From: Candidatus Pacearchaeota archaeon
GTDB lineage: Archaea > Nanobdellota > Nanobdellia > Pacearchaeales > GW2011-AR1
Direction: 5' to 3'
Assembly (NCBI GenBank): GCA_019659125.1
Contig: JAIFVX010000003.1
Coordinates: forward strand, 807 to 64,806
Length of the DNA stretch: 64,000 nucleotides
The position numbers and the translations under genes are program-made. The notes below the pieces were generated by a model. It made no database searches, was not told where the DNA came from, and was given only the letters and a program-made list of their open reading frames with translations. This document shows, piece by piece, positions 7,023 through 57,014 of the stretch (position 1 is the first letter of the stretch; every line of letters starts with the position of its first letter).

Positions 7023-9641
7023 GTGATAAATTTCAAGAAAATTGCGTCTGTAGTAACGAGCACTTTGATGTTGAGTTCTACGGTGGCTTTGGCCGCTGCA
7101 GCTAACTACCCAGCACCTTTCGTACAGAATGGAGCTGGCAACGTAGCTATAGTTTATGGTTCAAACTTACCAGCAGGATCAACTGACTTAGTAGCTGTTG
7201 CCGAGATCCAAGGATATTTGGCAACACAGCTTGCAAGACAGACAGCAACAGGAGGAACGAGTGTAACTGGTGTTTCAGTTACAGGAGAGGCAGCACCATT
7301 ATTTACAGGAACAAAACTCTATGTAAATGATTCATTGAACGCTGTCAAGACTGTAATGACAAAGACCGAACTGCCAACCGTTTTGGCTTCTGGAACTTTC
7401 TCAGGTAACGTGGATGCAACCTATACTCAAACTATTGATATAGGATCAAACCCACAAGTTACTTTTGCAAAGCAACCAACAAGCTCAGACGACCCACAGT
7501 TTGGACTTACACTGTCAACGAGCACTGCAAACTATCTTTACAACACATCGGTTACCTTCAACAAAGCAATAAACTTCACTCATGCCGACTCCAAGGGAGC
7601 AGATATGACCTTGTTCGGACAGAAGTTTACCGTGGCTTCTTCAACAGATACAACCAACCTAGTGTTGTTGAAAACTGCTGAAAAGATAAGCCTTACCAGC
7701 GATGCACCTTCACAGAAGGTCACCATCGGAGGAAAGGAATACACGATCGAATTAATCTCTGCATCTGACACTTCAGCTACTGTACGAGTTACAGCAAGCG
7801 ATGGAACTTCGGAAACGAAGGAGGTTAATGAGAACAGCTCAAAGAAGGTCAACGGAATCACAGTAGCCGTAACGAACGCTGACGAGACTAACTTAAAGTT
7901 GTCCGCATCAGTAATCGCAGGCGCTGAGAAAGTGACGCTAACAGATGGAAGCGCAGTAGCAATTGGAGAAGACTCCAAAGTAGTTGATGGAACGAAAGTT
8001 ACTCTAACAGGAGGCACTACGGCCACTACCAAAATAACGGTAAGTACCTATGCATCCGACTCAGACCATGACGCACTATTGCCGGGTCAAGAGTTTGTCA
8101 GCCCTACATTCGGAACCTTTAAGATAGACTTCGCTAGCCTTAATGAGCCGGAAAACAGCTCTGCTCGAGAGAACATTAAAATTGTCGCAAGTGGAGATGA
8201 TAAAATGATTGTTGACTTTATGCCAGGATACGCATCAAGCAACAAAGCAATCCAGTTCGCTATCAACAAGAGTACAGGTAGCAGTGGATTCCAACTTCAA
8301 TCCGACAGTGATGGACATAACATCACCGTACAGGAGAGAAGGAAGGCTTTCAAGAACGATTACATCGTTCTTGGAAATGAGGAAAGCGGACGCTTACTAA
8401 AAGTCCAGACCATCACAAACCAGACATCTGGTTACAACCAGGATAAAGTCAGCATGACTGATGTCTTCACAGGAGACACCTATGATGCTACATTAACTGG
8501 TGAAGGATCTGGAAGTATTGTTGTTGGAGGAAAGTCGTATAACCTCATCTATAACGGTACGCCGTCAGATGACTCAAACTTTGTACGATTGAACTATCCA
8601 GACAGTACAGGAAGCGGGGATGTAGTTTTGTTACCAACTTTGAGAACATCAAAGGGAGCAAAAGTTGCATTCTACAAGCCTATCAACAACTTATCGATTG
8701 ATGACTGGGATGGAGACGGAACTGATGCAGCAACGTTGAAATTCCCTAACGGGGATGGATACACGGATGTAGCAACAGTTGCAGGTCTTAACGCAGCAGG
8801 TATCGGAATGACTATTGGAGGCAGCGCGCTTAACGCGTCTCTTCCAGCAGTAACGGCAACTGTAGGTAGATTTACCTACAACTTTACGTATTCCGGTCCT
8901 AACCAAACAACTATTTACTTGCTTTCTCCTGACGGAGGAAACATTGTATCGCCAGCTATTCAGCTTATCGAGGAAAAAGATGACAACTCACAATTCCACG
9001 GAATGGTTGTCACCCTTGAGGGAGCAGGAAGCGGTGATCAAGGAGTAGGAGTTAACGACGTCTCAAGAACCTGGCAAAACGACGCTACCTGGGACCAAAT
9101 TACACTTGCTAGCAATAGCAAGATCAGTAAGGAGGCAGACCTTTACGGTACTATCGTAAGCATAGATTCTTCCGACTCAGACCAGAAATCTACAACCATC
9201 AGTTACCCTGATGAACAAGTTTACGCTAACATATACGCAGCTGAAAAGACTGCAGATATTTCAGGCGGAACAACTTCATCATCTGGAGGATCTGTACGAG
9301 AACTTGGCTCAGTCCTAGTGACTGACAGCGAGGCCTCATCAGTGTCTTCAAAGAATCTGATTGTTGTTGGTGGAAGTTGCGTTAACAAAGTTGCTGCTGA
9401 ATTGCTTGGAGGCTCTCTTTGCGGAGCAGACTTCGAGTCAAAGACAAGCGTTGGATCTGGTTCATTCCTGATTCAGTCGTTCAGTCGATCAAGCGGCGCT
9501 GTTGCAACACTCGTAGCAGGTTACAATGCAGCTGACACAGTCAATGCTGCACGATTCCTAGACACGCACACGGTAGATACTACTGTAGGCAAGAAGTACA
9601 AGGGATCATCTGCAACAAGTGCTGACCTAGTAACAACGTAA
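7023..9641 (+). CDS. S-layer protein (Methanococcales MJ0822-type)
   Basis: GTG start. Signal peptide ...STVALAAAANYPAPFVQNG, Thr/Ser/Gly-rich body, C-terminal LIVVGGSCVNKVAAELLGG ... LVAGYNAADTVNAARFL typical of this family. Confidence 0.7.
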   Translation: MINFKKIASVVTSTLMLSSTVALAAAANYPAPFVQNGAGNVAIVYGSNLPAGSTDLVAVAEIQGYLATQLARQTATGGTSVTGVSVTGEAAPLFTGTKLYVNDSLNAVKTVMTKTELPTVLASGTFSGNVDATYTQTIDIGSNPQVTFAKQPTSSDDPQFGLTLSTSTANYLYNTSVTFNKAINFTHADSKGADMTLFGQKFTVASSTDTTNLVLLKTAEKISLTSDAPSQKVTIGGKEYTIELISASDTSATVRVTASDGTSETKEVNENSSKKVNGITVAVTNADETNLKLSASVIAGAEKVTLTDGSAVAIGEDSKVVDGTKVTLTGGTTATTKITVSTYASDSDHDALLPGQEFVSPTFGTFKIDFASLNEPENSSARENIKIVASGDDKMIVDFMPGYASSNKAIQFAINKSTGSSGFQLQSDSDGHNITVQERRKAFKNDYIVLGNEESGRLLKVQTITNQTSGYNQDKVSMTDVFTGDTYDATLTGEGSGSIVVGGKSYNLIYNGTPSDDSNFVRLNYPDSTGSGDVVLLPTLRTSKGAKVAFYKPINNLSIDDWDGDGTDAATLKFPNGDGYTDVATVAGLNAAGIGMTIGGSALNASLPAVTATVGRFTYNFTYSGPNQTTIYLLSPDGGNIVSPAIQLIEEKDDNSQFHGMVVTLEGAGSGDQGVGVNDVSRTWQNDATWDQITLASNSKISKEADLYGTIVSIDSSDSDQKSTTISYPDEQVYANIYAAEKTADISGGTTSSSGGSVRELGSVLVTDSEASSVSSKNLIVVGGSCVNKVAAELLGGSLCGADFESKTSVGSGSFLIQSFSRSSGAVATLVAGYNAADTVNAARFLDTHTVDTTVGKKYKGSSATSADLVTT

Positions 9642-10275: not shown

Positions 10276-10914
10276 ATGAAGAAAGTCGTTAAAAAAGAAA
10301 ATAGCTCAAGGAGAAGGTTATACTGGATTGTTGGAACAATTGTCGTCCTTGTTGCCGTTTATCTTGCCACATCATATATCATCAGGGGCATGACTCAGTT
10401 CACCTATGAAGGCTTGACCTTCACGAAAGAGACCCAGTATGGCGTTCCCTTTTTCCACCACTATTATTACTTTACAGACTCCCATGGGCAGCTGACAAAA
10501 TACAACCTTTACTTGAGGAATGATCCTCGTACCAATACTGTCCCAGTCAGTGGAAGAGTCCTTTTCAATTTCAATAGAAAAATCTATCTAGGGATTAATA
10601 TCTCGGATCTCGCAGCATGCAGTAACAGCTCGCTTGCGGTCGCCGAGCTCTCATCATTCCTTACCGATAATGAGTTTCAGGTAACAGCAGGAGTACCTGA
10701 CAAGCAACAGGCACAAGAACTGAACCAGACCTATGTATCATGCACTCAATTCTTGGGGAATACAGTCATTATGCTTGAGGGTGGGGAAAACAGTTCCATT
10801 GTAGGAAAGAATGGGTGCTATAAACTCACCGTTTCGCAATGTAAGATCCTTCCCGTCGTGGAAAAGTTCAAAATCCGCGCGTTGCTCGATTCGAGAAACA
10901 CTACTTCTTCCTAA
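10276..10914 (+). CDS. N-terminally anchored secreted protein, unknown function
   Basis: TM helix LYWIVGTIVVLVAVYLATSYII. TATA-like tttaaaat at 10248-10255, ~25 nt upstream. Confidence 0.5.
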   Translation: MKKVVKKENSSRRRLYWIVGTIVVLVAVYLATSYIIRGMTQFTYEGLTFTKETQYGVPFFHHYYYFTDSHGQLTKYNLYLRNDPRTNTVPVSGRVLFNFNRKIYLGINISDLAACSNSSLAVAELSSFLTDNEFQVTAGVPDKQQAQELNQTYVSCTQFLGNTVIMLEGGENSSIVGKNGCYKLTVSQCKILPVVEKFKIRALLDSRNTTSS

Positions 10915-11503
10915 GCAACTCTATAGCTGGAGGGATAAAAGAAAGGATAATAACGATAAGTGTAACAAGTGAGAGATGCCCCTTGATTATCGGGATTGTT
11001 CCAAAGAAATATCCTCCAAATAAGAAGAGGCCCACCCATGTTATTCCTCCGAAGACATTATATCTTAAGAATTTTTTGTATTCCATGCTTCCCAGACCTG
11101 CGACGAATGGTGCAAAGGTCCTTATAATGGGCACAAACCGTGCCAGGACAATTGTCTTGGCTCCATGCTTATGATAGAAGGCATTTGTTTTGTCGATGTA
11201 TTCCTTCTTAAGCTTTGCTATCACTTTCTTCCCGAACGTATTTCCAACCCAGTAATTGACGGTGTCGCCTCCTATAGCTGCAAGAGAAAGCAGCACAAAC
11301 GCTGCTAGCACGACTCCTGGTCGCGCCGCAAGGGTGGCGCCTGCAACAAAGATAATTGAATCTCCCGGAAGAAACGGGGCAAATACAAGGCCAGTCTCAC
11401 AGAAAATAACAAGGATAAGAACACCAAGAGCTACATAGAGCCCATGTCCTGCGATAAAAGAATTAAGATAGGTATCTGTGTGAATGAGAAAGTCGAGAAT
11501 CAT
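10901..11503 (-). CDS. DedA family (VTT domain) membrane protein
   Basis: FAPFLPGDSIIFVAGA ... NYWVG ... FVPIIRTFAPFVAG pattern. Confidence 0.75.
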   Translation of the reverse strand: MILDFLIHTDTYLNSFIAGHGLYVALGVLILVIFCETGLVFAPFLPGDSIIFVAGATLAARPGVVLAAFVLLSLAAIGGDTVNYWVGNTFGKKVIAKLKKEYIDKTNAFYHKHGAKTIVLARFVPIIRTFAPFVAGLGSMEYKKFLRYNVFGGITWVGLFLFGGYFFGTIPIIKGHLSLVTLIVIILSFIPPAIELLRKK

Positions 11504-12021
11504 GATCTCCTCGTTATATCTGTAACAATGTTCATGACGTCCGTATATATGGGGATTTCACGAATCCTGAAGAGGAAAACGTTGGCAAACCATATGAGGA
11601 TAAGAAGAATCGTGCTTCCAAAGTACCAGAAGAGCTCGTGAGCAGTATCAAAGTATTGTGATCCTTGACGAGCAAGATGTGTGAATATAATGATCCGCAA
11701 GACATTCAAGAATAGGAATGAAAGGATAATGAAAAGTAGGCTGTAGAACCTTTTACGTGACTTCATAGGGGTTGATAAGTTCAAAACAAAGAGAAGATAG
11801 TAGGCTGCGCCTGCAATACAGGCAGGGATAAGCTCGATATAGATGCCTTGAACGAATATCGTTGCAGTCCCTTTAATAAGAATTGCTGATGGTAATCCAA
11901 GGGTTACAAGATGAAGCGTTATGGGGGAGAAAACTGCATAAATGACAGCAAGATTAAAAAGCGCAAGAAGTACCAAGGTCATGTATCGAGTAAGAAGGTA
12001 GATCATTTCCTTATCTTTCAT
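11500..12021 (-). CDS. Short exosortase/archaeosortase-family membrane protein (candidate)
   Basis: Polytopic, 173 aa. Candidate catalytic residues in family order: IPACIAG (Cys), LNVLRI (Arg), DTAHELF (His). Transcribed immediately downstream of (3' to) a surface-protein gene with a C-terminal sorting-type tail. Confidence 0.55.
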   Translation of the reverse strand: MKDKEMIYLLTRYMTLVLLALFNLAVIYAVFSPITLHLVTLGLPSAILIKGTATIFVQGIYIELIPACIAGAAYYLLFVLNLSTPMKSRKRFYSLLFIILSFLFLNVLRIIIFTHLARQGSQYFDTAHELFWYFGSTILLILIWFANVFLFRIREIPIYTDVMNIVTDITRRS

Positions 12022-16072: not shown

Positions 16073-16118
16073 AATTTAAGGTATAAAGAGGGCTTTTTAA
16101 AATGTTCTATTAATAAAA

Positions 16119-16193
16119 TGGGGATACCCAGATTTGAACTGGGATCGCCTGCTCCCAAAGCAGGAAGCTTAAACCAGGTTGGCCCATATCCCC
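16119..16193 (-). tRNA. tRNA-Pro (anticodon UGG)
   Basis: Hand-folded 75 nt: acceptor GGGGATA/TATCCCC, anticodon stem CCTGC/GCAGG with loop TTTGGGA, T arm CCCAG-TTCAAAT-CTGGG. No encoded CCA. Confidence 0.85.
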
Positions 16194-16217
16194 ATTCCAT
16201 GAAATGGCGAATGAGGG

Positions 16218-16231: not shown

Positions 16232-16591
16232 TTATAATTGGCTGAGAATACTAAATGCGGCAATCCAGCACGCACCATATAATATGGATACTATGGTTCC
16301 TAGTATCACAAACGCTTTTGCAAGCCGCAATTGACTTCTTTTCTTATAGACACCTGCAAGAACAAAATTAAGGATAATAAGAATTATAGGTCCTCCAAAG
16401 ATAAGAACGACTGCCATGATTGATAAAAATCCGTAAACAGATCGAAGAACGATAGACCCTGATGAATAAGCAAAACCTTGAATCAGAGTCGAAATAAACC
16501 ATAGTATCGCGACCCCAGCTACAACCGCGATATTGATGAGAAATGCTCTTCCTATACCTGGATCATCTTCTGATTGATATTTTCCATCCAT
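16232..16591 (-). CDS. Small membrane protein (paralog of 16591..16911)
   Basis: 3-4 TM. Shared C-terminal motif ...ILYGACWIAAFS. Confidence 0.5.
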   Translation of the reverse strand: MDGKYQSEDDPGIGRAFLINIAVVAGVAILWFISTLIQGFAYSSGSIVLRSVYGFLSIMAVVLIFGGPIILIILNFVLAGVYKKRSQLRLAKAFVILGTIVSILYGACWIAAFSILSQL

Positions 16592-16911
16592 TACCAGCTA
16601 CCCACAGTCGCCCAGCAGGCTCCGTAAATAATTAACACAATAGCGCCTATAATTGCAAGCATTTTAGCTGACCGAGTATTTCCTTTTTTACGCTCTCTGG
16701 CTGCCATGATAAAATTAGCAATTGCCGCAATGGGAAGAGGCGCTGCAACCATCAGAACAATGATAAGAATGCCCTGATCATTTCTTCCAAAGAACCCAAG
16801 CCAGGACGATATAAACATAAAGGCGTAAAGGATGAGAATGACTGCAAGGATAATAAGAACCGTAAATCCGAGAGCCTTACCAAAGGTACGTAACGATGTT
16901 TCTTCTTTCAT
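16591..16911 (-). CDS. Small membrane protein (paralog of 16232..16591)
   Basis: 3 TM. ...LIIYGACWATVGSW. Overlaps the radical SAM stop. Confidence 0.5.
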   Translation of the reverse strand: MKEETSLRTFGKALGFTVLIILAVILILYAFMFISSWLGFFGRNDQGILIIVLMVAAPLPIAAIANFIMAARERKKGNTRSAKMLAIIGAIVLIIYGACWATVGSW

Positions 16912-18368
16912 CTGAGTATAGGAAGAGCAACTCCTCTTTGTGGAGTTTCAGAAGGAACGATCTCTTCACGTAATTGACGTAACTTTTCTTCCATACCTTG
17001 TCTGTAGAATAAATTCATGGTTTCTATAGGGATGAGTTTCTCTCCTTTTGGGTCGACAATATGAACACATGACTTCTTGACTGCCCGGACACTGAAATCG
17101 TATGCATCCATAAATCGAATGCCTATGATCCTAAACAGATTCTCGTATTTAAAGCTTGGGGCAGATACTTGAGGAAGACAACACAAAAGCGTTTGAAGCG
17201 AGTCGCTGGCCGTCTCATGAGAGCTTCCTGTGCTAAATATCTTCATCATCAGACTTTTCCTCAATTGAGGATCATGTTCGAACACAATAGTGTTCCTCGC
17301 TCCTTCAATAAGTGTTTTTGGGTCAAGGTATCGTGTTAGGGGATGCACTTGTCCGTTGAAACGCAACGCATATCCCATGAAGATAGAGTCTGGATTACAA
17401 GGCACAGGAATGATATCATTAGGCTGGAAAATACTAGTTTGGTCAAGAATTGCCTGGCGGACTTCTGTCAACGTATATCTTTCAGTCACTGGATTGAAAT
17501 TGTCATTCCTTCCTGCGCGTTGCGTTGGTTGGAAGGTAACCCCTCGAACGGATCGCTGTTCCAATCCATATTTTATTATCTTTCCAATTTCATCAGTGTT
17601 CACTCCTCGCTGGAGTGTTGACACGAGAGTCGCTGGAAAATTCCTCTCATTGAGGTGTTCAATGGCCTTGTATCTAACATCGGTCAAATCTTCACCTCGT
17701 ATCTTTGTCAATGCTTCAGATTTGAAGGAATCAAACTGCAAATACATTTCAAGGCGAGGCATATACTGAGCGAGACGATCAGCAAAGCCAGGCTCTCGTG
17801 CGATTCTTACCCCATTGGTATTCACCATGAGGTTTTTTATCGGTCTTTTCTTTGCTTCATCGAGAATCTCAAAGAATTGGGGATGAACGGTAGGCTCTCC
17901 TCCTGAAATCTGGACAACATCGGGTTCTCCTTCGCTTCTTACGACAAGATCCATCATTTTTTTCACCTCATCCAATGATCTATGACTTCCAGACGAGGGC
18001 GATGAAAGGGTAAAGCATGTAGGGCATGAAAGATTGCATCTATCGGTAATCTCAATCAATGTCAGACATGAATGTTGTTCATGATCAGGACATAAACCGC
18101 AATCGTAAGGGCAGTTATATTTCATCTTTGTCTGGAAGAATCCGGGCATCTCGCTGTGCTTTAGAAACACTTCCCTTCCTTGACGGTAATAGTTTGCATC
18201 AGTTGACAAAAGGACTCTTTCATGCCCGTGTTCCCTGCAGTACTTGTCCATGAAAACTCGATTATCCTTAAGAATCACCTTTGCAGGGACTCTTCTCAAA
18301 CAGTCCGGATCTTTTGAGCACAGGCTTTCATCTTGGTCATAGTAGAGATAATTACGTGTTTTTTCCAT
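16908..18368 (-). CDS. Radical SAM enzyme, COG1964 / MJ0619 (tetraether lipid synthase Tes/GDGT-MAS)-like
   Basis: CNLSCPTC (CxxxCxxC), preceded by CPYDCGLCPDHEQHSC and an N-terminal Cys/His region (CREHGH). Family placement is from memory of the MJ0619-type layout. Confidence 0.6.
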   Translation of the reverse strand: MEKTRNYLYYDQDESLCSKDPDCLRRVPAKVILKDNRVFMDKYCREHGHERVLLSTDANYYRQGREVFLKHSEMPGFFQTKMKYNCPYDCGLCPDHEQHSCLTLIEITDRCNLSCPTCFTLSSPSSGSHRSLDEVKKMMDLVVRSEGEPDVVQISGGEPTVHPQFFEILDEAKKRPIKNLMVNTNGVRIAREPGFADRLAQYMPRLEMYLQFDSFKSEALTKIRGEDLTDVRYKAIEHLNERNFPATLVSTLQRGVNTDEIGKIIKYGLEQRSVRGVTFQPTQRAGRNDNFNPVTERYTLTEVRQAILDQTSIFQPNDIIPVPCNPDSIFMGYALRFNGQVHPLTRYLDPKTLIEGARNTIVFEHDPQLRKSLMMKIFSTGSSHETASDSLQTLLCCLPQVSAPSFKYENLFRIIGIRFMDAYDFSVRAVKKSCVHIVDPKGEKLIPIETMNLFYRQGMEEKLRQLREEIVPSETPQRGVALPILR

Positions 18369-18374
18369 TGCTAT

Positions 18375-19112
18375 TTACTCCGTGTTGTATAGAAACATGA
18401 TATAATATCCTGCCCCTATAAGGCTTGCAAGCTGAATTGCTGACAGGCCTAGAATAAGTGGATTAAGTGGCTTTATAAATTCTATTGCAATTCTGAATGT
18501 AAGGTATCCTATAACAAAGAGCTTGAACCTCACTCCAGGCTTTAATCTCCATTTTCTTTCAATCCCAAGAATAACAAGCCAGAGAATTCCAAGAAATACA
18601 ATTTCGTAAAGAGAAGTAGGATGACGTGGAAGACCATCTCCCTGGTCAAATGCCCAGGGGACTGAAGAGACAATGCCCACTGTTCTATCACTAACACCTG
18701 TGAGAAAACAACCAATCCTTCCAATAATCATTCCTAATATTAACGGATATGTGAACAAGTCTCCTGAAGGTCTTTTTTCTCCAATGATTTTCTTGGTTAT
18801 CTCTACTCCGATAATTGCTCCCAGAATGCCTCCAACGATCGTCTTTCCCTGGATGTAGTAGAGGAAAGAAGAAGGGTGGAAAAATGAAGCAGGATCTTCA
18901 AGGCTTGCGAGTAACCGTGAAAAAAGCAGTGCTCCAATAGCTCCTCCTAGAATGATGCTTTCCCGATTAGAAAAATGAAGCGGATCCCTCTGCTTCTTCT
19001 GAAGATGGAAATAAAAAACAAATGCGAAGAAAAATGCAAGAATTTCAAACACGGAATGAGAAGGAATAGCAACACTTCCTATATGGAAGTTAATAGGGAA
19101 CTTCATTTCCAT
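18375..19112 (-). CDS. lgt: Prolipoprotein diacylglyceryl transferase (Lgt)-like membrane protein
   Basis: GRIGCFLTG ... PWAFDQGDGLPRHPTSLYE resembles the Lgt signature (GR[IL]GNF ... HPxxLYE). Polytopic. Confidence 0.6.
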   Translation of the reverse strand: MEMKFPINFHIGSVAIPSHSVFEILAFFFAFVFYFHLQKKQRDPLHFSNRESIILGGAIGALLFSRLLASLEDPASFFHPSSFLYYIQGKTIVGGILGAIIGVEITKKIIGEKRPSGDLFTYPLILGMIIGRIGCFLTGVSDRTVGIVSSVPWAFDQGDGLPRHPTSLYEIVFLGILWLVILGIERKWRLKPGVRFKLFVIGYLTFRIAIEFIKPLNPLILGLSAIQLASLIGAGYYIMFLYNTE

Positions 19113-19137: not shown

Positions 19138-19878
19138 TTACTTCTTTGCAGGTTTCTTTTCAGGAGCTTTAGCGGCTTCCTTCTTTTCAGCTGCTGGGGC
19201 TGCTGGAGTTGCTCCTGGGGCTGCTGGAGTTGCTCCTGGGGCTGCTGGAGTTGCTCCTGGCGTCGCTGCTGCGGCTGCTGCCTTAGCTGCTTCCTCAGCT
19301 GCTTTGGCTTCCTCAAGAGCTTTCTTAGCCTTCTCCTGTTCTGCTTTTCTGATTGCAAAGAACCGTGCAAGGTCTGCTTTCTTCTCGGCAGATGGCTCGG
19401 TCACAGCGTTCTTAATCTCGTGATCATATTTTCCTGAATCAATATCCTTCTCTATGTCTTTTGCTTCCTTATTATCAACAAGAACTCCAAGAGAGACACA
19501 CGTGCCTACAACGAGCTTGACTGCTGATTTCAAGTTCTTTGCAAGCAAGTTAGACATCTTTGTCTGTGCAATAGAGATTATTCTTTCAAGAGCGATATTA
19601 CCAACTTTTGTCGTTTTAGCCTCTCCTGAGCCTTTTTCTGCATTAATTTCCTTTTTGATAAGCTCTGCAACAGGTGGAGAAAATACTTTGATCTTATATG
19701 ACTTCGTCTTTGCGTCAACATCAATCTCGACAGGAGCCTTCATTCCTTTGAAACCATGAGTTGCTGTATTTACATCTGCAATAACCTTTCCTAGGTTGAT
19801 TCCCATAGGACCCAGCTGCTGAGCTACTGCTGGACCTGGCTTCATATCTCCTCCGTCAACGATTAATTTAACTTTCAT
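19138..19878 (-). CDS. rpl11: Ribosomal protein L11 with ~85-aa Ala/Pro/Lys/Glu-rich C-terminal extension
   Basis: MKVKLIVDGGDMKPGPAVAQQLGPMGINLGK... Start at ATG 19878, preceded by GGGAGGAAGAGG. The tail contains PGATPAA x3. Confidence 0.85.
   Translation of the reverse strand: MKVKLIVDGGDMKPGPAVAQQLGPMGINLGKVIADVNTATHGFKGMKAPVEIDVDAKTKSYKIKVFSPPVAELIKKEINAEKGSGEAKTTKVGNIALERIISIAQTKMSNLLAKNLKSAVKLVVGTCVSLGVLVDNKEAKDIEKDIDSGKYDHEIKNAVTEPSAEKKADLARFFAIRKAEQEKAKKALEEAKAAEEAAKAAAAAATPGATPAAPGATPAAPGATPAAPAAEKKEAAKAPEKKPAKK
19196..19258. repeat. Perfect 21-bp x 3 tandem repeat (ggggctgctggagttgctcct) inside the L11 tail
   Basis: Read directly from the sequence. Encodes PGATPAA x3 on the minus strand. 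Confidence 0.9.
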
Positions 19879-20329
19879 CCTCTTCCTCCCTATCTTCACG
19901 CCTTATAACCTTTACGTTATCCATCTTGACCGTTACAGGGATAGGGACAGATGCCCCAAGAAGTGAAACGACCACTTCCCCCTTTGCCTTGTCAACTCGA
20001 GTAACTTTAGCCTTTTCATTCTTGAATGGCTCTGCAATCATTTCCACGACGTCACCAATCTCAATCTTGAAGTCCTCAACCTTAGGCTCAAGCATATTCT
20101 TGATTTCCTCATACGTAAGGGTCTTGCCAATAATTCCTTTTACATACGGCAAATTGAATGCTGCCTCTTCTGCTGAATCTCGGTCAGCAGCCTCGAGAAT
20201 AATATATCCTTTCAACCCGTGAGGTCGAATGACAGAGTAAACATTGATGTTCTTTTTCTCAGCGCGGTCGCTAATCATCTCGACTGCCCTGTCTTCCTTG
20301 TTCGTTGTTACTTTGATAATAAATATCAT
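19868..20329 (-). CDS. spt5: Transcription elongation factor Spt5 (NusG)
   Basis: NGN domain followed by KOW (GDVVEMIAEPFKNEKAKVTRVDKAKGEVVVSL). Confidence 0.85.
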   Translation of the reverse strand: MIFIIKVTTNKEDRAVEMISDRAEKKNINVYSVIRPHGLKGYIILEAADRDSAEEAAFNLPYVKGIIGKTLTYEEIKNMLEPKVEDFKIEIGDVVEMIAEPFKNEKAKVTRVDKAKGEVVVSLLGASVPIPVTVKMDNVKVIRREDREEEDES

Positions 20330-20466: not shown

Positions 20467-21375
20467 ATGAGGTTTAGATTTCTAATAGTAATAATAATAC
20501 TAGTATTATTATTTCAACTCTCTTCCGTTGCCAGCAATGAGAATAATCTCCTCGAGCCACAATATCGCAACTACCATGAATTATTTAATAAAAATGGAAT
20601 TAAAAATACTCTTACTATTGTTGGAAGTCTTTACGAACAGGGCAATCTAACTAGTGATGAATGTCATTTTATCCTCCATGAACTAGGAGATTATGCATCG
20701 AAAAAAATTGGGATAAAAAAATCCCTCCAAGAAGCAACAGAGACATGCAGAGCAGGATTCATCCATGGACTTTTCTTGAATTCCAACTTGACCGAGGTGC
20801 ATGATACGTCCCTATGCACTGGGTTTTTTACTAAGAAGTTGCGTTTACAATGTTTACATGGGCTTGGACATGGGCTAACAGTCTTTTTTGATTACAATCT
20901 TTCAGAGGCACTAGGTGTATGCAAGAGTGGAAAGAACGATGGCTATCAGAGCGCATGTGCCTCCGGGGTCTTTATGGAAGAGTTTAGTCCTCGCGCCCAT
21001 CTGTCTAGAAATGCTACTAATGAAACTTTTGAAATATGCGAGAATAATGATTTCAAATCTGAATGCAATTGGTATATTGGAATACGCATAACTCAGTACA
21101 ATAAGTCATTAACTCAGGGGCTAAAAGAATGCAATAATGCTGGGCAAAATTATCACACAGATTGTGAAAGAGGTATTGGAGTGCTAGCAGCACGAAGGAC
21201 TAACTATGACAAAGAGAATGTATTTTCTATCTGTGGAATTTCTAAGGAATGCTTGTTTGGCGCTGCAAGCGAATTCAGTCTGTCTGAAGGAATTAAAAGG
21301 GGCTTGTTATTTTGCAGACAGTTTCCGATCGAGGACAAAAGAAGATGTTTATCGGAAGTGATGTTCTTATTCTGA
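20467..21375 (+). CDS. Secreted Cys-rich protein, unknown function
   Basis: Signal peptide MRFRFLIVIIILVLLFQLSSVASN. Recurring C...G..HG.. segments (CRAGFIHGLF, CLHGLGHGL, CASGVFME). TATA-like box at 20436-20445. Confidence 0.5.
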   Translation: MRFRFLIVIIILVLLFQLSSVASNENNLLEPQYRNYHELFNKNGIKNTLTIVGSLYEQGNLTSDECHFILHELGDYASKKIGIKKSLQEATETCRAGFIHGLFLNSNLTEVHDTSLCTGFFTKKLRLQCLHGLGHGLTVFFDYNLSEALGVCKSGKNDGYQSACASGVFMEEFSPRAHLSRNATNETFEICENNDFKSECNWYIGIRITQYNKSLTQGLKECNNAGQNYHTDCERGIGVLAARRTNYDKENVFSICGISKECLFGAASEFSLSEGIKRGLLFCRQFPIEDKRRCLSEVMFLF

Positions 21376-21880: not shown

Positions 21881-22330
21881 TCAAGTCTTTTCAAGCTTAG
21901 CTAAATATTCTTTAACCCTTTCTATCGTCTGGGGGATGAGGAAGCGCTCAATCTTATTTTCAAAGAGTTCGGAGATTGGCGCGAACTCTGAAATCCTGTA
22001 CTGATTCTCCTGTTTGTCGACAAGCATTGAATCCCGAAGTCTCTTTAATTGACGACGGATGTTGCTTTCAGCGAGTCCCTTGTTTTCAAGGGAATTATCT
22101 TTCCGTGTTTCTTCGACGAGGTCTTTTATACTGAATGAAGTGAGCCACTCCTTGTTTTTTCTCGCATCTTCCAAGACAAGAAGGATGTCGACGATAATAT
22201 CTCGGGAATCTCCTGGCTGAAGGAGCCCAAGAGACAGACATACTTTCCTGACAATCTCTCGTTTCGAGGAGTCGTAGGGCTTTTCATATTTTCTTAACGT
22301 TATTTCCCCGAGAGGGATATCTTTCACCAT
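21881..22330 (-). CDS. Winged-helix transcriptional regulator (family not resolved)
   Basis: SRDIIVDILLVL... and AESNIRRQLKRLRDSMLVDKQENQYRI are HTH/wing-like. Confidence 0.45.
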   Translation of the reverse strand: MVKDIPLGEITLRKYEKPYDSSKREIVRKVCLSLGLLQPGDSRDIIVDILLVLEDARKNKEWLTSFSIKDLVEETRKDNSLENKGLAESNIRRQLKRLRDSMLVDKQENQYRISEFAPISELFENKIERFLIPQTIERVKEYLAKLEKT

Positions 22331-27307: not shown

Positions 27308-27925
27308 ATGGAACTGAAAGAAGCACTACACGAGTTGAGAAAGGAAGAGAAGAGAAAGTTCGACCAAAGCGTTGACGTAATTGTAAATCTTAAGGGCATC
27401 GATCTAAAGCGAGACAATCTTTCAACTATCATCACCATCCCTCATATTGTAAAAGAAAAAAAAGTGTGCGCATTCCTGACAAAAAAGGCAACAGGGATAA
27501 CAACGGTAACGCAACCAGACTTCCAGAAATATAAAGATAAGAAGACTCTTAAGAATTTAGTGAAAAGCTATGACTTTTTTATTGCAGCTGCGCCACTCAT
27601 GCCGGCTGTCGCCACAACGTTCGGTAAAATCCTTGGGCCAGCAGGAAAAATGCCGTCACCACAACTTGGAATTATTACCCATGAAGATGAGGCAACTATC
27701 AAGGGAATTGTCGGAAAGATCTCTCAATCGGTCAAGATACGAGTGAAAGAGCCTAGCGTGAAGGTAAGTATTGGAAAGGAAAGTATGACTGATGAGAAGA
27801 TCATGGAGAATATTCGAGCAGTCTATCATGGATTGGTGGCCATTCTCCCAACGAAGAAAGAAAACGTTCGATCCGTCATGGTAAAGTTGACTATGAGCAA
27901 GCCGCTCAAGGTGGACATAAAATGA
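27308..27925 (+). CDS. rpl1: Ribosomal protein L1
   Basis: FDQSVDVIVNLKGIDLK ... GKILGPAGKMPSP, typical of uL1. Confidence 0.9.
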   Translation: MELKEALHELRKEEKRKFDQSVDVIVNLKGIDLKRDNLSTIITIPHIVKEKKVCAFLTKKATGITTVTQPDFQKYKDKKTLKNLVKSYDFFIAAAPLMPAVATTFGKILGPAGKMPSPQLGIITHEDEATIKGIVGKISQSVKIRVKEPSVKVSIGKESMTDEKIMENIRAVYHGLVAILPTKKENVRSVMVKLTMSKPLKVDIK

Positions 27926-28743
27926 AATTACAAATGAAGAAGACCATGCGAGAGAAGGAAATTCCTGAGTACAAGGTAAAATTGGTTTCTGATATTGCAC
28001 AGAAAATCAAGAACGCCAAGACAGTTCTTATTGCATCAACAAAAAATCTTCCCAGCTCACAGTTCCATGAGATCAAAAAGAACCTGAGAGGCAAGGCAGA
28101 GATCAGCGTTGCCAAGAAATCTATTGTTATTCGTGCTATCGAGAAGTCTGGAAAGGCTGCCCTTCAACCTCTTAAGGAAACCATCGGTGCTGACGTCGCA
28201 CTCTTCTTCTCAGATATGGATCCTTTCTCCCTCTCAGGATTGTTAACTGACAGCCAGAGCGCTGCAAAGGCAAAGGCCGGAGACATAGCTCCTGAAGACA
28301 TTCATGTAGAACCTCAGCCTACGGACCTTGTTCCTGGACCTGCTATTTCAGAGCTTGCAGGTGTTGGACTAAAAGTCGCTGTTGAAGGTGGAAAACTAGC
28401 CATCAAGCAGCCACATACGATTGCAAAAGCAGGAGATGTCATCAAGGAAAATGTCGCTAGCGTTATGGCTAAACTAGGAATCACCCCTATGAAGGTTGGA
28501 TTTGAGCCTATTGCAGCATATGATGCAGATGCCGATAAGGTGTATGTAGGAATCAAGATCGACAAGAAGGCAGCCTTGGATGAGCTGCGAGATTCTATCA
28601 AGAAAGCTCTTGGCTTTGCTATCAACATGAAGATAGTCATCAAGGAGACTCTCTCATATTTCCTTGCTAAGGCTGCTATGGAAGAGAAAGCGATGGAATC
28701 ATTAACTCACAAACATCATAGTCATCAGGAGGCATCCGCATGA
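27922..28743 (+). CDS. rpl10: Ribosomal stalk protein P0 (L10), short, without the conserved C-terminal tail
   Basis: IPEYKVKLVSDIAQKIKNAKTVLIAS...PSSQFHEIKKNLRG. Ends ...LTHKHHSHQEASA instead of an acidic ...GLxALFG tail. Confidence 0.85.
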   Translation: MKLQMKKTMREKEIPEYKVKLVSDIAQKIKNAKTVLIASTKNLPSSQFHEIKKNLRGKAEISVAKKSIVIRAIEKSGKAALQPLKETIGADVALFFSDMDPFSLSGLLTDSQSAAKAKAGDIAPEDIHVEPQPTDLVPGPAISELAGVGLKVAVEGGKLAIKQPHTIAKAGDVIKENVASVMAKLGITPMKVGFEPIAAYDADADKVYVGIKIDKKAALDELRDSIKKALGFAINMKIVIKETLSYFLAKAAMEEKAMESLTHKHHSHQEASA

Positions 28744-53545: not shown

Positions 53546-54139
53546 CTAGAACAAGCCACCCTTAAGGATCTCTAACTTGAATGAGGTTGCCCCGATGATA
53601 TCTCCCGAAGCCTTATCCTGGACATCGACAAATACTTTCTGTGTACAACTGGCCGTGCCTTTAGGAACATTCACGTCTATGTTCGCAAGTGCAACAGAAA
53701 AGTCCTTGAGTGCATCAAACTGTAAGAATTGATCAAGACGGGTTTCAAACAATGCTTTTGTCTTGGCCACTCCCAGCTTGTTGGCGCTGATGCAGTTGCT
53801 TCCAGTAGCTTCCTCAAGCGAGAGCTTGTATTGCAATTGATCTCGTGCATTGATTCTGGCTCCATCAGGATTCCTCGCTCCTAGGCCAATCGTCAAACTG
53901 CTGTCAGGTCGCACCGTTGCAGTCCTATCCTTGCCTAGGTTGACAATGACATCATCACTATCATCAGTAAATAAGGAGGCAATTGCATTCTGGACCTTGC
54001 TTTGCAATACATCGACTGTTGCCGTCGTTCCTGTAAATATATTCTTAATGAGCACAAGACCGAGGATAAGCATTGACATTGCCAAGACAACAATAACGAT
54101 CGTACTTACAGAAAGCTCAATCGCTGCCTTTCTTCTCAT
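53546..54139 (-). CDS. Pilin-like protein (class III signal-like N-terminus)
   Basis: MRRKA|AIELSVSTIVIVVLAMSMLILGLVLI. Confidence 0.5.
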   Translation of the reverse strand: MRRKAAIELSVSTIVIVVLAMSMLILGLVLIKNIFTGTTATVDVLQSKVQNAIASLFTDDSDDVIVNLGKDRTATVRPDSSLTIGLGARNPDGARINARDQLQYKLSLEEATGSNCISANKLGVAKTKALFETRLDQFLQFDALKDFSVALANIDVNVPKGTASCTQKVFVDVQDKASGDIIGATSFKLEILKGGLF

Positions 54140-54414
54140 GGGCTATATCCTGCCTGAGAGAGAAAGTCTGGATGCTGTGCAAGATAATAGATACTTGCAA
54201 TGGCCAGCAAAGCGCTTAATACAATACCTATAATAGCAAGCACTCTTCCCGACTTTGACCATTGGTTGGAGGCATATTTCCTCTGCTTATTGGAGAATAC
54301 TAATGCAGTAATACCAAGCGCGAGACCTGCAAGGGGAGAACCCATGAACACGATGCTCATAATGCTGAGGACGACGCCTGCAACACCAAAACTATTGTCA
54401 GCCTCTTTCTTCAT
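54136..54414 (-). CDS. Small membrane protein (DUF4190-like)
   Basis: Two TM helices with a basic loop (SNKQRKYASNQWSKSGR). Confidence 0.4.
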   Translation of the reverse strand: MKKEADNSFGVAGVVLSIMSIVFMGSPLAGLALGITALVFSNKQRKYASNQWSKSGRVLAIIGIVLSALLAIASIYYLAQHPDFLSQAGYSP

Positions 54415-54463: not shown

Positions 54464-54712
54464 TTACTTTATCTTATTTTTCAATCGCTCTTCTTTGCCG
54501 ATCCTTCTCATCTCTTTTGCAAGCATGACTTCTGCGGGGAGCATGACGAGGATTCCCACAATCATAATTATCAGACCTATCATTCTTCCCAGATTGAAGT
54601 GTACTGCGAGAACGATGCCAAGGCCGACTCCAAAAACTATTTTAGAAAGAATATAATTCACCCCTAGACGCGGCGGAAGCTTCTTGACTGCCCGCCAGTA
54701 ATGTGCTAGCAT
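54464..54712 (-). CDS. Small membrane protein
   Basis: Two TM helices. ORF only. Confidence 0.35.
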   Translation of the reverse strand: MLAHYWRAVKKLPPRLGVNYILSKIVFGVGLGIVLAVHFNLGRMIGLIIMIVGILVMLPAEVMLAKEMRRIGKEERLKNKIK

Positions 54713-54744: not shown

Positions 54745-55581
54745 TTAGTGAGGCGCCCATGCGTACAATGCGCGTATCTCTGTCTCATTCAACGCTTTCC
54801 TAAAGATCATGACATCATCCATTGATCCTTTGAAGTAACTGTCTCCATCTGACGTTCCTAGATTAAGAGAGGCATTTCCTTTCTGCAGGTGAATTCCATA
54901 GTCGGTAAGCGGAGCAGAGTGCTTAAGAATCCCATTCTTCCATATTTCAACTGACGTGCCATTATACACTCCAGTAAGAAACATCCATTCATGGGGGGTG
55001 ATAGGCTCATCAAGGTCTCCACTTACGCCAAGCCCTCCTGAACGGTTAAATAAATAGAATGCAATCCTATTGTTCTTTCCCTCGGCATTTGAGCTATTGT
55101 ACTGCCTGAACATATATTCATAGTCATCGCCATTGCCTCCCTTTCCAAGGAAATGGACATAATTATTGCCACTTCCCTCACCGACAAAATTTGTCCTGTC
55201 AAATTTTATCCATAGTGCTACCGTGAATCCAGAGGCGGTTGCAGGGCTTAGAAGTTTAGAGTCGCGGATAGTAATCCGGTCATTCTTTCCATCGAACTCA
55301 AATGCCCCATCATGAAAGGGCCCTCCTGTTTCATTCCATAGTGCACTGATGACGGTGCCAGAATTCTTCTTTCCTGAAAAATCATAGGTCTTTGTAGGAT
55401 TGTAGAGTGTTTCGTTCTCAAACGGCATGAAGAGCACAAGAGCCTTGCTCAACCTTGGAGGGAAGGTAAGAGAATTTCCCGTGTTTGCAGAGAAAGGAAA
55501 ATAGTAGTAGAAAAGTATGTTTGCCATGATAAGCATTGCTACGCCAAGCGATGTGAACAAGAATAGCCTCTTAGATGCCAT
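54745..55581 (-). CDS. Membrane-anchored LamG (concanavalin A-like lectin) domain protein
   Basis: FDGKNDRITI ... FTVALWIKF ... WMFLTGVYNG..VEIWKNG ... FKGSMDDVMIFRKALNETEI. Confidence 0.65.
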   Translation of the reverse strand: MASKRLFLFTSLGVAMLIMANILFYYYFPFSANTGNSLTFPPRLSKALVLFMPFENETLYNPTKTYDFSGKKNSGTVISALWNETGGPFHDGAFEFDGKNDRITIRDSKLLSPATASGFTVALWIKFDRTNFVGEGSGNNYVHFLGKGGNGDDYEYMFRQYNSSNAEGKNNRIAFYLFNRSGGLGVSGDLDEPITPHEWMFLTGVYNGTSVEIWKNGILKHSAPLTDYGIHLQKGNASLNLGTSDGDSYFKGSMDDVMIFRKALNETEIRALYAWAPH

Positions 55582-55622
55582 AGAATACGCTTTTCATAAG
55601 ACAAGCGATTATTTATAACTTA

Positions 55623-55694
55623 TGGGAGCGGAGGGAGTCGAACCCCCGACACCACGAGCTTCAATCGTGTGCTCTCCCGCTGAGCTACGCTCCC
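55623..55694 (-). tRNA. tRNA-Phe (anticodon GAA)
   Basis: Hand-folded 72 nt: acceptor GGGAGCG/CGCTCCC, D arm GCTC-AGCGGGA-GAGC, anticodon stem CACGA/TCGTG with loop TTGAAGC, T arm GGGGG-TTCGACT-CCCTC. Confidence 0.85.
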
Positions 55695-55717
55695 GTATTG
55701 AAGCTACAAGTAGATGA

Positions 55718-55725
55718 CTTTTAAA
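55718..55725 (-). promoter_or_regulatory. TATA-like box for tRNA-Phe
   Basis: Minus-strand catttaaaag is centred ~27 nt upstream of the tRNA 5' end. Confidence 0.45.
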
Positions 55726-55730
55726 TGTTT

Positions 55731-56018
55731 TTAGAAGCAATTCCTGTCGTAAATGCAGTCGCCAAGAAATGACTCTGGATGGTCATCCCGAGGCCATTGA
55801 AGTATGTCATAGTACTCGTGAGTTTCTCGAGCAAGCCGAATATCGAGCTCAGTTATTTTTTTGGACAACATATGATTGAATTTTCCATCTACCATAATGT
55901 AAAACGCTGGTGTGCCTTCTTCAGGACAGCATCCACTATATACTCGCATTATTTCAGGGTTTTCCTCTGCAAATGTCCTCAATCTGTCTTCAAGATATAA
56001 CGAAGAAATTCCAGCCAT
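55731..56018 (-). CDS. Hypothetical protein
   Basis: ORF only. Confidence 0.35.
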   Translation of the reverse strand: MAGISSLYLEDRLRTFAEENPEIMRVYSGCCPEEGTPAFYIMVDGKFNHMLSKKITELDIRLARETHEYYDILQWPRDDHPESFLGDCIYDRNCF

Positions 56019-56039
56019 GTATGCTATAGTATATAATTC

Positions 56040-56420
56040 TTAATAAATGTTTTCAGAACGGGTATTTACCTTCGCGTGCCTTCTGGCTCGTGATTTGGAA
56101 TAATTAGATGAAAATGAATCTATAATGTTGCTTGCTTCCCTGCTAGGAGAGGTATAGTCTATAAACGTGTTCTCTTCTTGAGGTAGCTCAATGCCGCTCG
56201 CATATTTCCATGAACCTCTCAAGGACGTCAGAACCCTCTCAAGACTCAACTCAAGGTCATCACAATTCATTACCGTGAATATAAGTTCCCTATCCGGCGA
56301 TTGAAATCCTCCCTCTAGAAAATCATGTTCATATTCATTCCAAATATTCTGCGCTTTTCGAGGATTATCATACGACTGGAATTCATGAAAGTCCCAATCC
56401 TCTCGCAATTGTGATGACAT
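56040..56420 (-). CDS. Hypothetical protein
   Basis: ORF only. Confidence 0.35.
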   Translation of the reverse strand: MSSQLREDWDFHEFQSYDNPRKAQNIWNEYEHDFLEGGFQSPDRELIFTVMNCDDLELSLERVLTSLRGSWKYASGIELPQEENTFIDYTSPSREASNIIDSFSSNYSKSRARRHAKVNTRSENIY

Positions 56421-56458
56421 AGTAAGAATTGGATTTTACGATATTTAAAGCTTTTTGA

Positions 56459-56722
56459 TTAGATATCTGAAAGAATCAGGCGCTCAATGGTTACTTCTGG
56501 CACTTCTGGAATAAGGTTCAACCTTTTACCATCCGGATCTACAGAAACTAATCGAGTAGGATGATTGACATGCTTAACGGTATAGGTTGCATGATCCGCA
56601 GGGCTATTTATGGTATAGCTATCTCCTACTCTTGGAAGCTCTCCTTTTTTATCATCTATTTCTGCTCTTTGGCTATGGACTCCTGACTTGTTATTAATAA
56701 TAAATAGATCATATCTAACCAT
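56459..56722 (-). CDS. Hypothetical protein
   Basis: ORF only. Confidence 0.35.
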   Translation of the reverse strand: MVRYDLFIINNKSGVHSQRAEIDDKKGELPRVGDSYTINSPADHATYTVKHVNHPTRLVSVDPDGKRLNLIPEVPEVTIERLILSDI

Positions 56723-56735
56723 AAATGCATAGAAG

Positions 56736-57014
56736 TCATTTAATATTTAAGCATTTATATGATGATGTGAGTCGGGCGTAGGCCAGATTCTGTCGGATGT
56801 CGTAATCGAACCATCCGTGCTGACATCGGTCTATGCGAGCGGCGAGGGCTCTTGCATCAGCGAAGTCGCCCGTGTCAAGATCAGAGATCTTGAGCACCCC
56901 AAGATCGCCCTGAAGCGATCTTGACGTTTCATCATATCCTTCATCTCGTTGCTTCCTGCAAAGTTCATCGCTCAATGAAGGCTGTGTCGTTTCTGTTGCG
57001 GAGCTCTGCCTCAC
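56736..57014 (-). pseudogene. High-GC ORF fragment, possible remnant of a foreign gene
   Basis: 92-aa ORF with a GTG start inside a patch counting 57% GC (56761-56860). Upstream 57015-57150 has only short broken ORFs in other frames. Confidence 0.3.

Follow-up and report, generated by a model that had tools for sequence, protein, structure and literature searches.

We analysed four tightly packed open reading frames (ORFs), arranged like an operon on the minus strand at 16232..19112 of a 64,000-nucleotide stretch of Candidatus Pacearchaeota archaeon DNA (contig JAIFVX010000003.1 of assembly GCA_019659125.1, positions 807 to 64,806; hereafter the window). The ORFs code for an Lgt-like transferase, a radical S-adenosylmethionine (radical SAM) enzyme and two paralogous small membrane proteins. 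We found that the Lgt-like protein, the radical SAM enzyme and one or two small proteins make up a self-contained cassette that is widespread in bacteria and is not specific to DPANN archaea. Built from known kinds of parts, the cassette apparently has not been described so far.

Linkage and distribution of the cassette

A scan for the radical SAM protein was made with one genome per GTDB species. At least 596 species genomes encode a relative, and the best 80 loci were analysed. Nearly all of these 80 were from Bacteroidota (Chitinophaga, Mucilaginibacter, Pedobacter, Flavobacterium, Hymenobacter, Ferruginibacter and Saprospiraceae among them), and the rest were one Paenibacillus and one Rhodanobacter metagenome-assembled genome (MAG). 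An Lgt-like gene, whose product was 37-52% identical to that of the window, was located upstream on the same strand, usually adjacent, in 78 of the 80 loci.

The reciprocal scan of metagenome contigs used motifs specific to the Lgt-like subfamily and found at least 475 loci, the best 80 of which were analysed. The radical SAM gene was present downstream in 60 of the 63 loci that extended for 600 nt or more past the Lgt-like gene, and in 46 cases it was within 200 nt. Where 2 kb or more was available downstream, a match to a hidden Markov model (HMM) of the small proteins was observed in 42 loci out of 49. The association of the Lgt-like and radical SAM genes is far beyond chance, as the co-occurrence check proposed in an earlier note on this DNA was meant to establish. 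On the other hand, the same note had discussed a lipid-remodelling or lipid-attachment module in the light of DPANN-type archaea; a restriction to DPANN archaea is not supported, as the genomes of 596 or more bacterial species carry the cassette, and Bacteroidota predominate in the best matches.

We observed no further conserved neighbour when peptidase, exporter and acyltransferase genes were sought, and the largest cluster of neighbours covered 14 of the 80 loci. Genes situated between the Lgt-like and radical SAM genes, where present, were unrelated ones, for example, toxin-antitoxin modules and TPR proteins. The same gene order was found in Bacteroidota, Paenibacillus, Rhodanobacter, a contig probably from the candidate phyla radiation (CPR), a plasmid and probable DPANN contigs. 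Soil and water bacteria carry the cassette very frequently. CPR bacteria have it as well, and so do further contigs of probable DPANN origin, at least three in number.

The plasmid copy is a full three-gene cassette at 54932..57252 of the 162-kb Chondrinema litorale plasmid NZ_CP111057.1, which is non-mobilizable according to PLSDB; a second match was on a 1.07-Mb Persicobacter replicon. RefSeq names the three Chondrinema products 'prolipoprotein diacylglyceryl transferase family protein', 'radical SAM protein' and 'hypothetical protein'.

The closest relatives of the Lgt-like protein (57-62% identity) came from another Pacearchaeota MAG and from a second, probably archaeal MAG with an S3Ae gene as neighbour. 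Further close relatives were in a probable CPR contig (L088, assigned from its gene content and from close homologues with CPR names) and in Peregrinibacteria and Parcubacteria entries. All inspected loci of these close relatives have this cassette as well. Archaeal locus L087 has two small genes with the C-terminal motif, as the window does, while Pacearchaeota locus L085 has a single such gene and, after it, a membrane ORF that lacks the motif. In L088, a 160-aa membrane protein ending in Cys is encoded between the two enzyme genes.

Among open-access papers and preprints, we found none tying bacterial Tes homologues to an Lgt paralogue or to small proteins of this kind. One paper (PMC7641849) had all the linking terms (Lgt, Tes/radical SAM, lipobox), in unrelated contexts. 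No curated family model was found for the cassette.

The two enzymes

By its sequence, the Lgt-like protein is a clear PF01790 member but no canonical Lgt. It matched the Pfam LGT model PF01790 with 91 bits (cut-off 24.9, E 9e-26), while the NCBIfam lgt equivalog TIGR00544 gave 58.4 bits, below its cut-off of 118.9. An AlphaFold model (pLDDT 91.6) had a sole significant match in the PDB, the E. coli Lgt 5AZB (E 3e-8, TM 0.63). The name of Lgt-like transferase, which the earlier note had used, is therefore right as to family and fold and does not extend to canonical Lgt, given this score and the replacement of Y26, H103 and E151.

To compare residues, 122 members of the subfamily were aligned to E. 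coli Lgt. Catalytic-centre residues R143, Y235 and R239 are kept as R132, Y203 and R207, all invariant. The equivalent of E243 (E211 here) is Glu or Asp in 121 sequences and Asn in one; that of E202 (E170 here) is Glu in 121 sequences and Glu or Asp throughout. The R195-H196-P197 motif (RHP...YE) and the equivalents of G142 and G145 are invariant or have one deviating sequence. In E. coli Lgt, the retained residues build up the second of the phosphatidylglycerol sites, which is the catalytic one. Other positions are changed with the same regularity. N146 is replaced by an invariant Cys (C135) and Tyr26 by His19, while H103 (of HGGL) has become Val or Ala, E151 Val or Ile and D129 Leu, in all or nearly all sequences.

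In E. coli Lgt, R143 and R239 form the transfer centre, and activity is lost when Y26, H103 or E151 is mutated (PMC4728403). Tyr26 touches the sn-2 ester of phosphatidylglycerol, and the Y26A, Y26F and Y26Q variants are inactive (PMC4728403). Together with E151 it contacts phosphatidylglycerol in the first site, in what was called a substrate-selection filter (Mao et al. 2016, PMC4728403). We infer that the Lgt-like protein keeps the transfer chemistry, with the donor selection changed. The invariant His and Cys at cavity positions could have a catalytic or metal-binding role.

E. coli Lgt (5AZB/5AZC) thus has the same fold and the same catalytic-centre residues as the window protein. The expected target is also similar, a Cys at the outer membrane face that comes after a basic loop and a hydrophobic helix. 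The window protein is shorter (245 aa compared to 291 aa), and its periplasmic head appears reduced, as judged from alignment gaps. Unlike E. coli Lgt, it is genetically linked to a radical SAM enzyme and to one or two private candidate substrates that have a non-canonical motif at the C-terminus.

The archaeal proteins AliA and AliB, for which the role of Lgt was proposed (Hong et al. 2025, PMC12462473), have two conserved arginines in common with Lgt. Their similarity to PF01790 is marginal (HHpred probability 29%), whereas the window protein is a clear member. As far as their description allows a comparison, the window protein also differs from them in residing in a probably bacteria-derived cassette with private small candidate substrates.

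The radical SAM enzyme is, on profile and alignment evidence, a member of the MJ0619/COG1964 superfamily and not a Tes. It matched PF23545 (Zn_ribbon_HMPTM; 51 bits, gathering threshold 27) and PF04055 (82 bits, gathering threshold 29.5), and the order of an N-terminal zinc ribbon and a radical SAM domain is the layout of the MJ0619/HMPTM-type superfamily. The motifs CPYDCGLCPDHEQHSC and CNLSCPTC, from which the earlier note had recognized this family, are present in the translation. The closest solved relative by sequence is the tetraether lipid synthase GDGT-MAS (7TOL, E 5e-61); the C-terminal part aligned to it weakly, with 29.6 bits. The further suggestion that the protein belongs with Tes itself did not hold. 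The Tes model NF045702 gave 247.8 bits at a cut-off of 450, and the alignment was limited to residues 14-324.

The metal-binding motifs of the N-terminal half are listed in Table 1. The rubredoxin-like site matches the GDGT-MAS motif C9X2C12X20C33X2H36 (PMC9433317) except in the first spacer. The auxiliary C86, C90 and C93 with a His correspond to C73, C77 and C80 with a His in GDGT-MAS (compared to PMC9433317), and the radical SAM CX3CX2C is common to both. The C-terminal domain has invariant residues of its own (C324, C396-C397, C434, H436 and M451), some found also in TrsS and some not. The C-terminal domain of GDGT-MAS, which comprises an auxiliary cluster, a labile Met and two lipid pockets, has Ser where C324 would be, Tyr in place of M451 and no Cys aligned to 396/397. 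Scans with Pfam and NCBIfam gave no SPASM/twitch or RiPP-recognition domain (RiPP, a peptide made by the ribosome and modified after translation). An AlphaFold model of this enzyme, made from a 13-sequence alignment, had a mean pLDDT of 52, with the C-terminal half below 50, and the model was left out of the fold comparison.

The best-scoring curated model was TrsS (NF045646), with 295 bits at a cut-off of 490. This alignment runs from end to end (residues 13-458 to positions 3-436 of 441), and C324, C434 and H436 are common to both. The C396-C397 pair is missing in TrsS. True TrsS proteins come from archaea (Hadarchaea and Methanomassiliicoccales), while the window family is mainly bacterial. 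At the two TrsS loci that we inspected, the neighbourhood contained URO-D-family genes, AMP-binding genes and further radical SAM genes, and an Lgt-like gene was absent. Membership of the window enzyme in the TrsS system was rejected on these loci and on the score below the cut-off.

A search of 1.84 billion cluster representatives gave 597 with E < 1e-30 to the radical SAM protein. The nearest relatives were 57-65% identical, about 465 aa long and bacterial where named. In a neighbour-joining tree of the superfamily (85 full-length representatives, computed without support values), the window protein groups with cassette proteins of Bacteroidota and Acidobacteriota and with one archaeal homologue, away from the TrsS representative. 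An NCBIfam scan was made of 20 sequences: 17 representatives from the tree, the cassette proteins of L085 and L088 and one Bacteroidota family member. The TrsS cut-off was passed by one of them (P0353, 545 bits) and the Tes cut-off by none.

The phylogeny that the earlier note had asked for thus puts the enzyme in a clade of its own with bacterial sequences, yet inside the MJ0619/Tes superfamily. Since the enzyme is a member of this superfamily and the gene pair is conserved elsewhere, neither of the outcomes named there as damaging, a clade unrelated to Tes/MJ0619 or a pair lacking in other genomes, was observed outright.

Compared to Tes, the window enzyme has all three metal-binding sites described above and is probably lipid-directed as well. 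Unlike Tes, its family occurs mainly in bacteria not known to make biphytanyl chains, and it has an Lgt-like partner, which is not mentioned in the Tes literature surveyed.

Small membrane proteins and the proposed function

The small proteins are a conserved third component of the cassette and the most informative clue to its function. The earlier note had listed them as operon members; the paralogous pair is there, and the accessory role gives way to that of a component. The 106-aa and 119-aa proteins end in ...LIIYGACWATVGSW and ...SILYGACWIAAFSILSQL, respectively, with ...YGACW... in both, as had been noticed. Small protein 1 has three predicted transmembrane segments, and its C-terminal RERKKGNTRSAK-MLAIIGAIVLIIYGA-C99-WATVGSW is the candidate lipid acceptor. 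Small protein 2 ends in ...KKRSQLRLAK-AFVILGTIVSILYGA-C108-WIAAFSILSQL.

We made an HMM from 63 small proteins of bacterial cassettes. It placed small proteins 1 and 2 first (E 2e-6) and second (E 3e-4) among the 401 ORFs of the window, and the small genes of the other archaeal loci matched it with E values of 3e-15 to 7e-13. Two weak matches, window ORFs 54136..54414 and 54464..54712, were rejected, as they are without the Cys motif. Pfam and NCBIfam searches with ten cassette small proteins produced noise-level matches only, so no model covers the family. A weak match of a window small protein to HsmA (E 0.02) was discarded, since its relatives did not show it.

Downstream of the radical SAM gene in the genome loci, the next ORF usually shares 4 nt with it or begins within about 25 nt. 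The bacterial small proteins there have 58-106 aa, are hydrophobic and carry a conserved terminal motif. A C-terminal Cys was found in 64 of about 67 hydrophobic downstream ORFs at the 80 genome loci. The consensus of 123 distinct sequences was G(-4, in 89 sequences)-[F/L](-3)-[G/S/A](-2)-[I/T/V/A](-1)-Cys, or G-[FLY]-[GSA]-x-Cys. Before the Cys come an uncharged run of 16 residues (median) and, still further ahead, a loop whose net charge is +2 on average. The tail after the Cys is poorly conserved and has almost no charge (3-13 residues in the 63 genome-locus proteins measured). This is the order of a lipoprotein signal (basic n-region, hydrophobic h-region, Cys), present here as a C-terminal helix. 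Judging from the alignments, the C-terminal Cys segment is the sole conserved feature of the small proteins. Tandem small paralogues with divergent bodies and the same C-terminus were observed in at least 12 metagenome loci.

The short tail after the Cys ends in His (...NFH, ...NMH, ...SMH, ...GIH) in many bacterial members, mostly of Chitinophagaceae or Sphingobacteriaceae type (for example, L002 9417..9674 and L027 7413..7694) and also in the Rhodanobacter MAG (L077). Flavobacteriaceae small proteins have ...CGSMMM-like tails in place of the His ends. The small protein of metagenome locus L090 shares the IIYGACW motif of the window (...IIYGACWGIIGLGSIF).

The reading that we prefer, tentatively and with somewhat less than even confidence, is a dedicated S-lipidation system in which the Lgt-like enzyme lipidates the small-protein Cys and the radical SAM enzyme remodels the lipid. 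The small protein would be the dedicated acceptor of the Lgt-like enzyme. Its last helix would run from inside to outside and, by the positive-inside rule, the Cys would come to the outer membrane interface. The active site of Lgt faces this interface (PMC4728403). The Lgt-like enzyme would take a glyceryl-lipid group off a membrane lipid and attach it to the Cys thiol, the donor probably not being selected in the way canonical Lgt selects phosphatidylglycerol. Before or after this transfer, the radical SAM enzyme would work from the cytoplasmic face, as Tes does, by hydrogen abstraction from a lipid tail and coupling or cross-linking. The product would be a small membrane protein covalently carrying an unusual lipid. 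In favour of this proposal are the linkage of the genes, the Cys segment of the small proteins, the Lgt fold with its retained catalytic centre and the conserved cofactor motifs of the radical SAM enzyme, whose closest solved relative, GDGT-MAS, couples lipid tails.

A more specific version can also be formulated, a new kind of protein lipidation where the Lgt paralogue would lipidate the small-protein Cys and the Tes-like enzyme would couple the tail across the bilayer to give a protein-anchored membrane-spanning or macrocyclic lipid. We regard this version as distinctly unlikely.

Several observations weigh against S-lipidation. For all members of the cassette, the function is proposed from the genes. 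Residues Y26, H103 and E151 are essential in E. coli and missing here, so that different chemistry, or none, may take place. The radical SAM enzyme would be cytoplasmic and the Cys is predicted on the other face, which makes a direct action on the Cys topologically awkward. The substrate-side C-terminal half of this enzyme aligns poorly to GDGT-MAS (30 bits). Moreover, the radical SAM protein of L085 (4010..5341) is without equivalents of C44, C86, C90 and C93, and that of L088 (9304..10713) is without C93 and H96; both retain the radical SAM motif, C324, C434 and H436. As for the small proteins, the canonical lipobox [LVI][ASTVI][GAS]C was present in 4 and the PROSITE core in 27 of the 123 sequences, and the segment is C-terminal, whereas a lipobox is N-terminal with the mature protein after it. 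Small proteins at two genome loci (L019, L062) have no Cys. The HMM used in the metagenomes was seeded from Cys-containing sequences, therefore the invariance of the Cys there is partly circular.

In the strongest rival, the product of the two enzymes would be a free membrane lipid of a specialised kind, and the small protein would serve as a scaffold or anchor; we consider this unlikely, with an appreciable chance all the same. The radical SAM enzyme would couple iso-branched or isoprenoid tails into membrane-spanning or macrocyclic lipids, the Lgt-like enzyme would move diacylglyceryl to a non-protein acceptor, and the small-protein Cys would be structural or cofactor-binding. Three residues that canonical prolipoprotein modification requires are indeed missing from the Lgt-like protein. 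The radical SAM enzyme, having no membrane segment of its own, could be tethered by a small membrane partner. At L090, a squalene/phytoene-synthase family gene (7517..8911) is located directly after the cassette, followed by genes for an inorganic pyrophosphatase and an HAD hydrolase. The Bacteroidota that carry the cassette, aerobic ones included, are not known to make tetraethers or diabolic acids, which speaks against a free lipid of this type. Membrane-spanning lipids have been proposed as products of bacterial Tes homologues (PMC8941075; PMC9433317). Still, the sole conserved feature of the small proteins is a Cys in a signal-peptide-like setting, the type of target that Lgt has, and tandem proteins with divergent bodies and the same C-terminus are more typical of substrates than of stoichiometric subunits.

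It is rather improbable, a shade more so than the tail coupling across the bilayer, that the cassette makes a RiPP-like lipopeptide. Here, the small protein would be a precursor, modified near the Cys by the radical SAM enzyme and lipidated by the Lgt-like enzyme, from which a peptidase would free a lipopeptide of 4-14 residues starting at the Cys. Radical SAM enzymes commonly mature peptides, just 3-13 residues follow the Cys, and the order of enzyme, enzyme and variable tandem small ORFs resembles precursor-peptide loci. Such a role is opposed by the absence of SPASM/twitch and RiPP-recognition domains in an enzyme whose solved relative acts on lipids, by the lack of a conserved peptidase or exporter among the neighbours sought and by the poor conservation of the tail. 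Also, residue -1 is usually I, T or V, which is unfavourable for signal peptidase II.

The idea of the earlier note, a Tes orthologue joining scavenged archaeal lipid tails next to a regular Lgt as a DPANN-specific adaptation, is very unlikely and largely refuted by the family tests made on the sequences. The superfamily and cofactor layout are those of GDGT-MAS, and DPANN MAGs have been reported with bacterial-type lipid-modifying genes (PMC11868695). However, the enzyme scores below the Tes equivalog cut-off with the N-terminal two thirds alone aligned, its closest relatives (57-65% identity) are bacterial, the cassette is common in aerobic Bacteroidota, and the canonical Lgt residues are missing.

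Origin, genomic setting and significance

Bacteria were probably the source from which this Pacearchaeota lineage obtained the cassette. Transfer from bacteria to DPANN archaea is the most economical account because archaea are otherwise reported to have no PF01790/Lgt homologues (Hong et al. 2025, PMC12462473), bacterial sequences make up the overwhelming part of the family, and the archaeal copies occupy different genomic sites. The Lgt-like protein of the window is closest to the DPANN and CPR versions (59-61% identity compared to 46-49% for Bacteroidota), while the radical SAM protein is closest to Bacteroidota (63% compared to 43-59% for the archaeal copies and 28% for the CPR copy). The two enzymes diverge out of step also within single loci. 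In L088 (8001..10713), the Lgt-like protein was 59% identical to that of the window and the radical SAM protein, from another clade, 28%; in L085 (3268..5341), the respective values were 61% and 43%.

An artefact of assembly or binning, with bacterial cassette DNA wrongly joined to an archaeal contig, would fit with a MAG as the source and with bacterial sequences as the closest radical SAM relatives. We hold it to be highly improbable. The cassette runs unbroken from 25 nt after an archaeal L11 gene to 37 nt before a tRNA gene, and its tetranucleotide composition is near the window average (3rd percentile of distance; GC content 0.414). The cassette is present, in addition, in two independent MAG contigs, one from another Pacearchaeota MAG and the other with an S3Ae gene, as well as in a Logan assembly of the second locus. 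A recent insertion or a chimera was rejected on the same composition and on the independent archaeal loci.

The ORF coordinates were re-read on the window, and the four-gene order and the positions given in the earlier note are exactly those of the ORF list (Table 1). Its 4-nt and 1-nt overlaps between the last three genes were read directly as well: ATGA at the radical SAM stop and the start of small gene 1, and TAATG between the two small genes. In the same way, 25 nt were read between the L11 stop and the Lgt-like start and 6 nt between the Lgt-like stop and the radical SAM start.

Table 1. Features of the cassette and its boundary in the window.
Feature	Coordinates	Strand	Description
Lgt-like transferase gene	18375..19112	minus	245 aa; non-canonical Lgt-family subfamily; integral membrane protein
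His19 codon, at the E. coli Lgt Tyr26 position	19056..19058	minus	His in 122 of 122 sequences
G131-R132-I-G134-C135, altered signature (E. coli G142-R143-L-G145-N146)	18708..18722	minus	Arg and Cys in 122 of 122 sequences
Y203...R207...E211 (E. coli Y235, R239, E243)	18480..18506	minus	retained catalytic-centre residues; 122-sequence alignment
Radical SAM gene	16908..18368	minus	486 aa; MJ0619/Tes/TrsS superfamily, distinct clade
C17-X5-C23-X20-C44-X2-H47	18228..18320	minus	rubredoxin-like metal site; four residues invariant in 121 members and TrsS
C86-X3-C90-X2-C93...H96/H99...C101	18066..18113	minus	N-terminal auxiliary [4Fe-4S] motif; invariant in family
C111-X3-C115-X2-C118	18015..18038	minus	radical SAM cluster motif; invariant; inside PF04055 match, residues 105-266
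Small membrane protein 1 gene	16591..16911	minus	106 aa
Cys99 codon of small protein 1	16615..16617	minus	
Small membrane protein 2 gene	16232..16591	minus	119 aa; paralogue of small protein 1
tRNA-Pro(UGG)	16118..16194	minus	ARAGORN; bounds the cassette, context and no functional part

With rpl11 on one side and tRNA-Pro 37 nt off the last stop (ARAGORN), the cassette is wedged between the two. Genes of tRNAs often serve as integration sites. The scan of neighbouring window genes showed no integrase; at a related archaeal locus (L086/L087), a phage-type integrase gene is about 2 kb upstream of the cassette. The neighbours in the window are archaeal: Spt5-NGN, L11, L37Ae, prefoldin beta, SepF, FtsZ, L10P and an S-layer-like protein. 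NCBI lists the exact Lgt-like and radical SAM proteins under Candidatus Pacearchaeota archaeon, on a contig of 70.7 kb, which likewise supports the archaeal assignment; an exact look-up of the radical SAM protein in a contig index gave no match.

The L11 gene (19138..19899, minus strand) codes for 253 aa, and the Pfam L11 domains stop at residue 141. The C-terminal extension of about 110 residues (19138..19476), rich in Ala, Pro, Lys and Glu and with PGATPAA three times, is unusual for an archaeal L11. The usual archaeal gene run spt5-rpl11-rpl1-rpl10 is split here, with spt5-rpl11 (19138..20329) on the minus strand, followed by the cassette, and rpl10 (27922..28743, within 27308..28743) on the plus strand about 8 kb away, probably preceded by rpl1. 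A membrane protein with a VTT/DedA domain is encoded at 10901..11503, some 5 kb away from the cassette. Its family has members linked to flipping of lipids or lipid carriers, and in other loci no linkage of such a gene to the cassette was seen. The ORF at 20467..21375 codes for a Cys-rich protein of 302 aa with an N-terminal hydrophobic segment and no Pfam match; ORFs 21881..22330 and 11500..12021 are also without Pfam match.

The module is large and apparently unnamed, counting the radical SAM protein in at least 596 species genomes and the Lgt-like one in at least 475 metagenome loci. Some of its members belong to cultured and tractable Bacteroidota (Chitinophaga, Mucilaginibacter, Pedobacter and Flavobacterium), which makes the hypothesis of S-lipidation directly testable. 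The Tes papers left open the function of the bacterial GDGT-MAS/Tes homologues, for which some authors guessed branched tetraethers. Such homologues have already been used to infer producers of branched tetraethers, while the clade linked to Lgt probably does something else. If the more specific version, with tails coupled across the bilayer, is true, many 'bacterial Tes homologues' counted as tetraether markers would belong to a different process, and the protein-anchored lipid would escape ordinary lipidomics based on solvent extraction.

DPANN archaea are largely without lipid synthesis. Homologues of Lgt are denied to archaea in the literature, yet clear PF01790 proteins occur in several DPANN MAGs, in a cassette that was probably acquired. 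This adds to the evidence that DPANN archaea take up bacterial genes that modify membranes. If the version with tails coupled across the bilayer is right, bacteria (Bacteroidota, CPR) and DPANN archaea would have handed this chemistry from one to the other.

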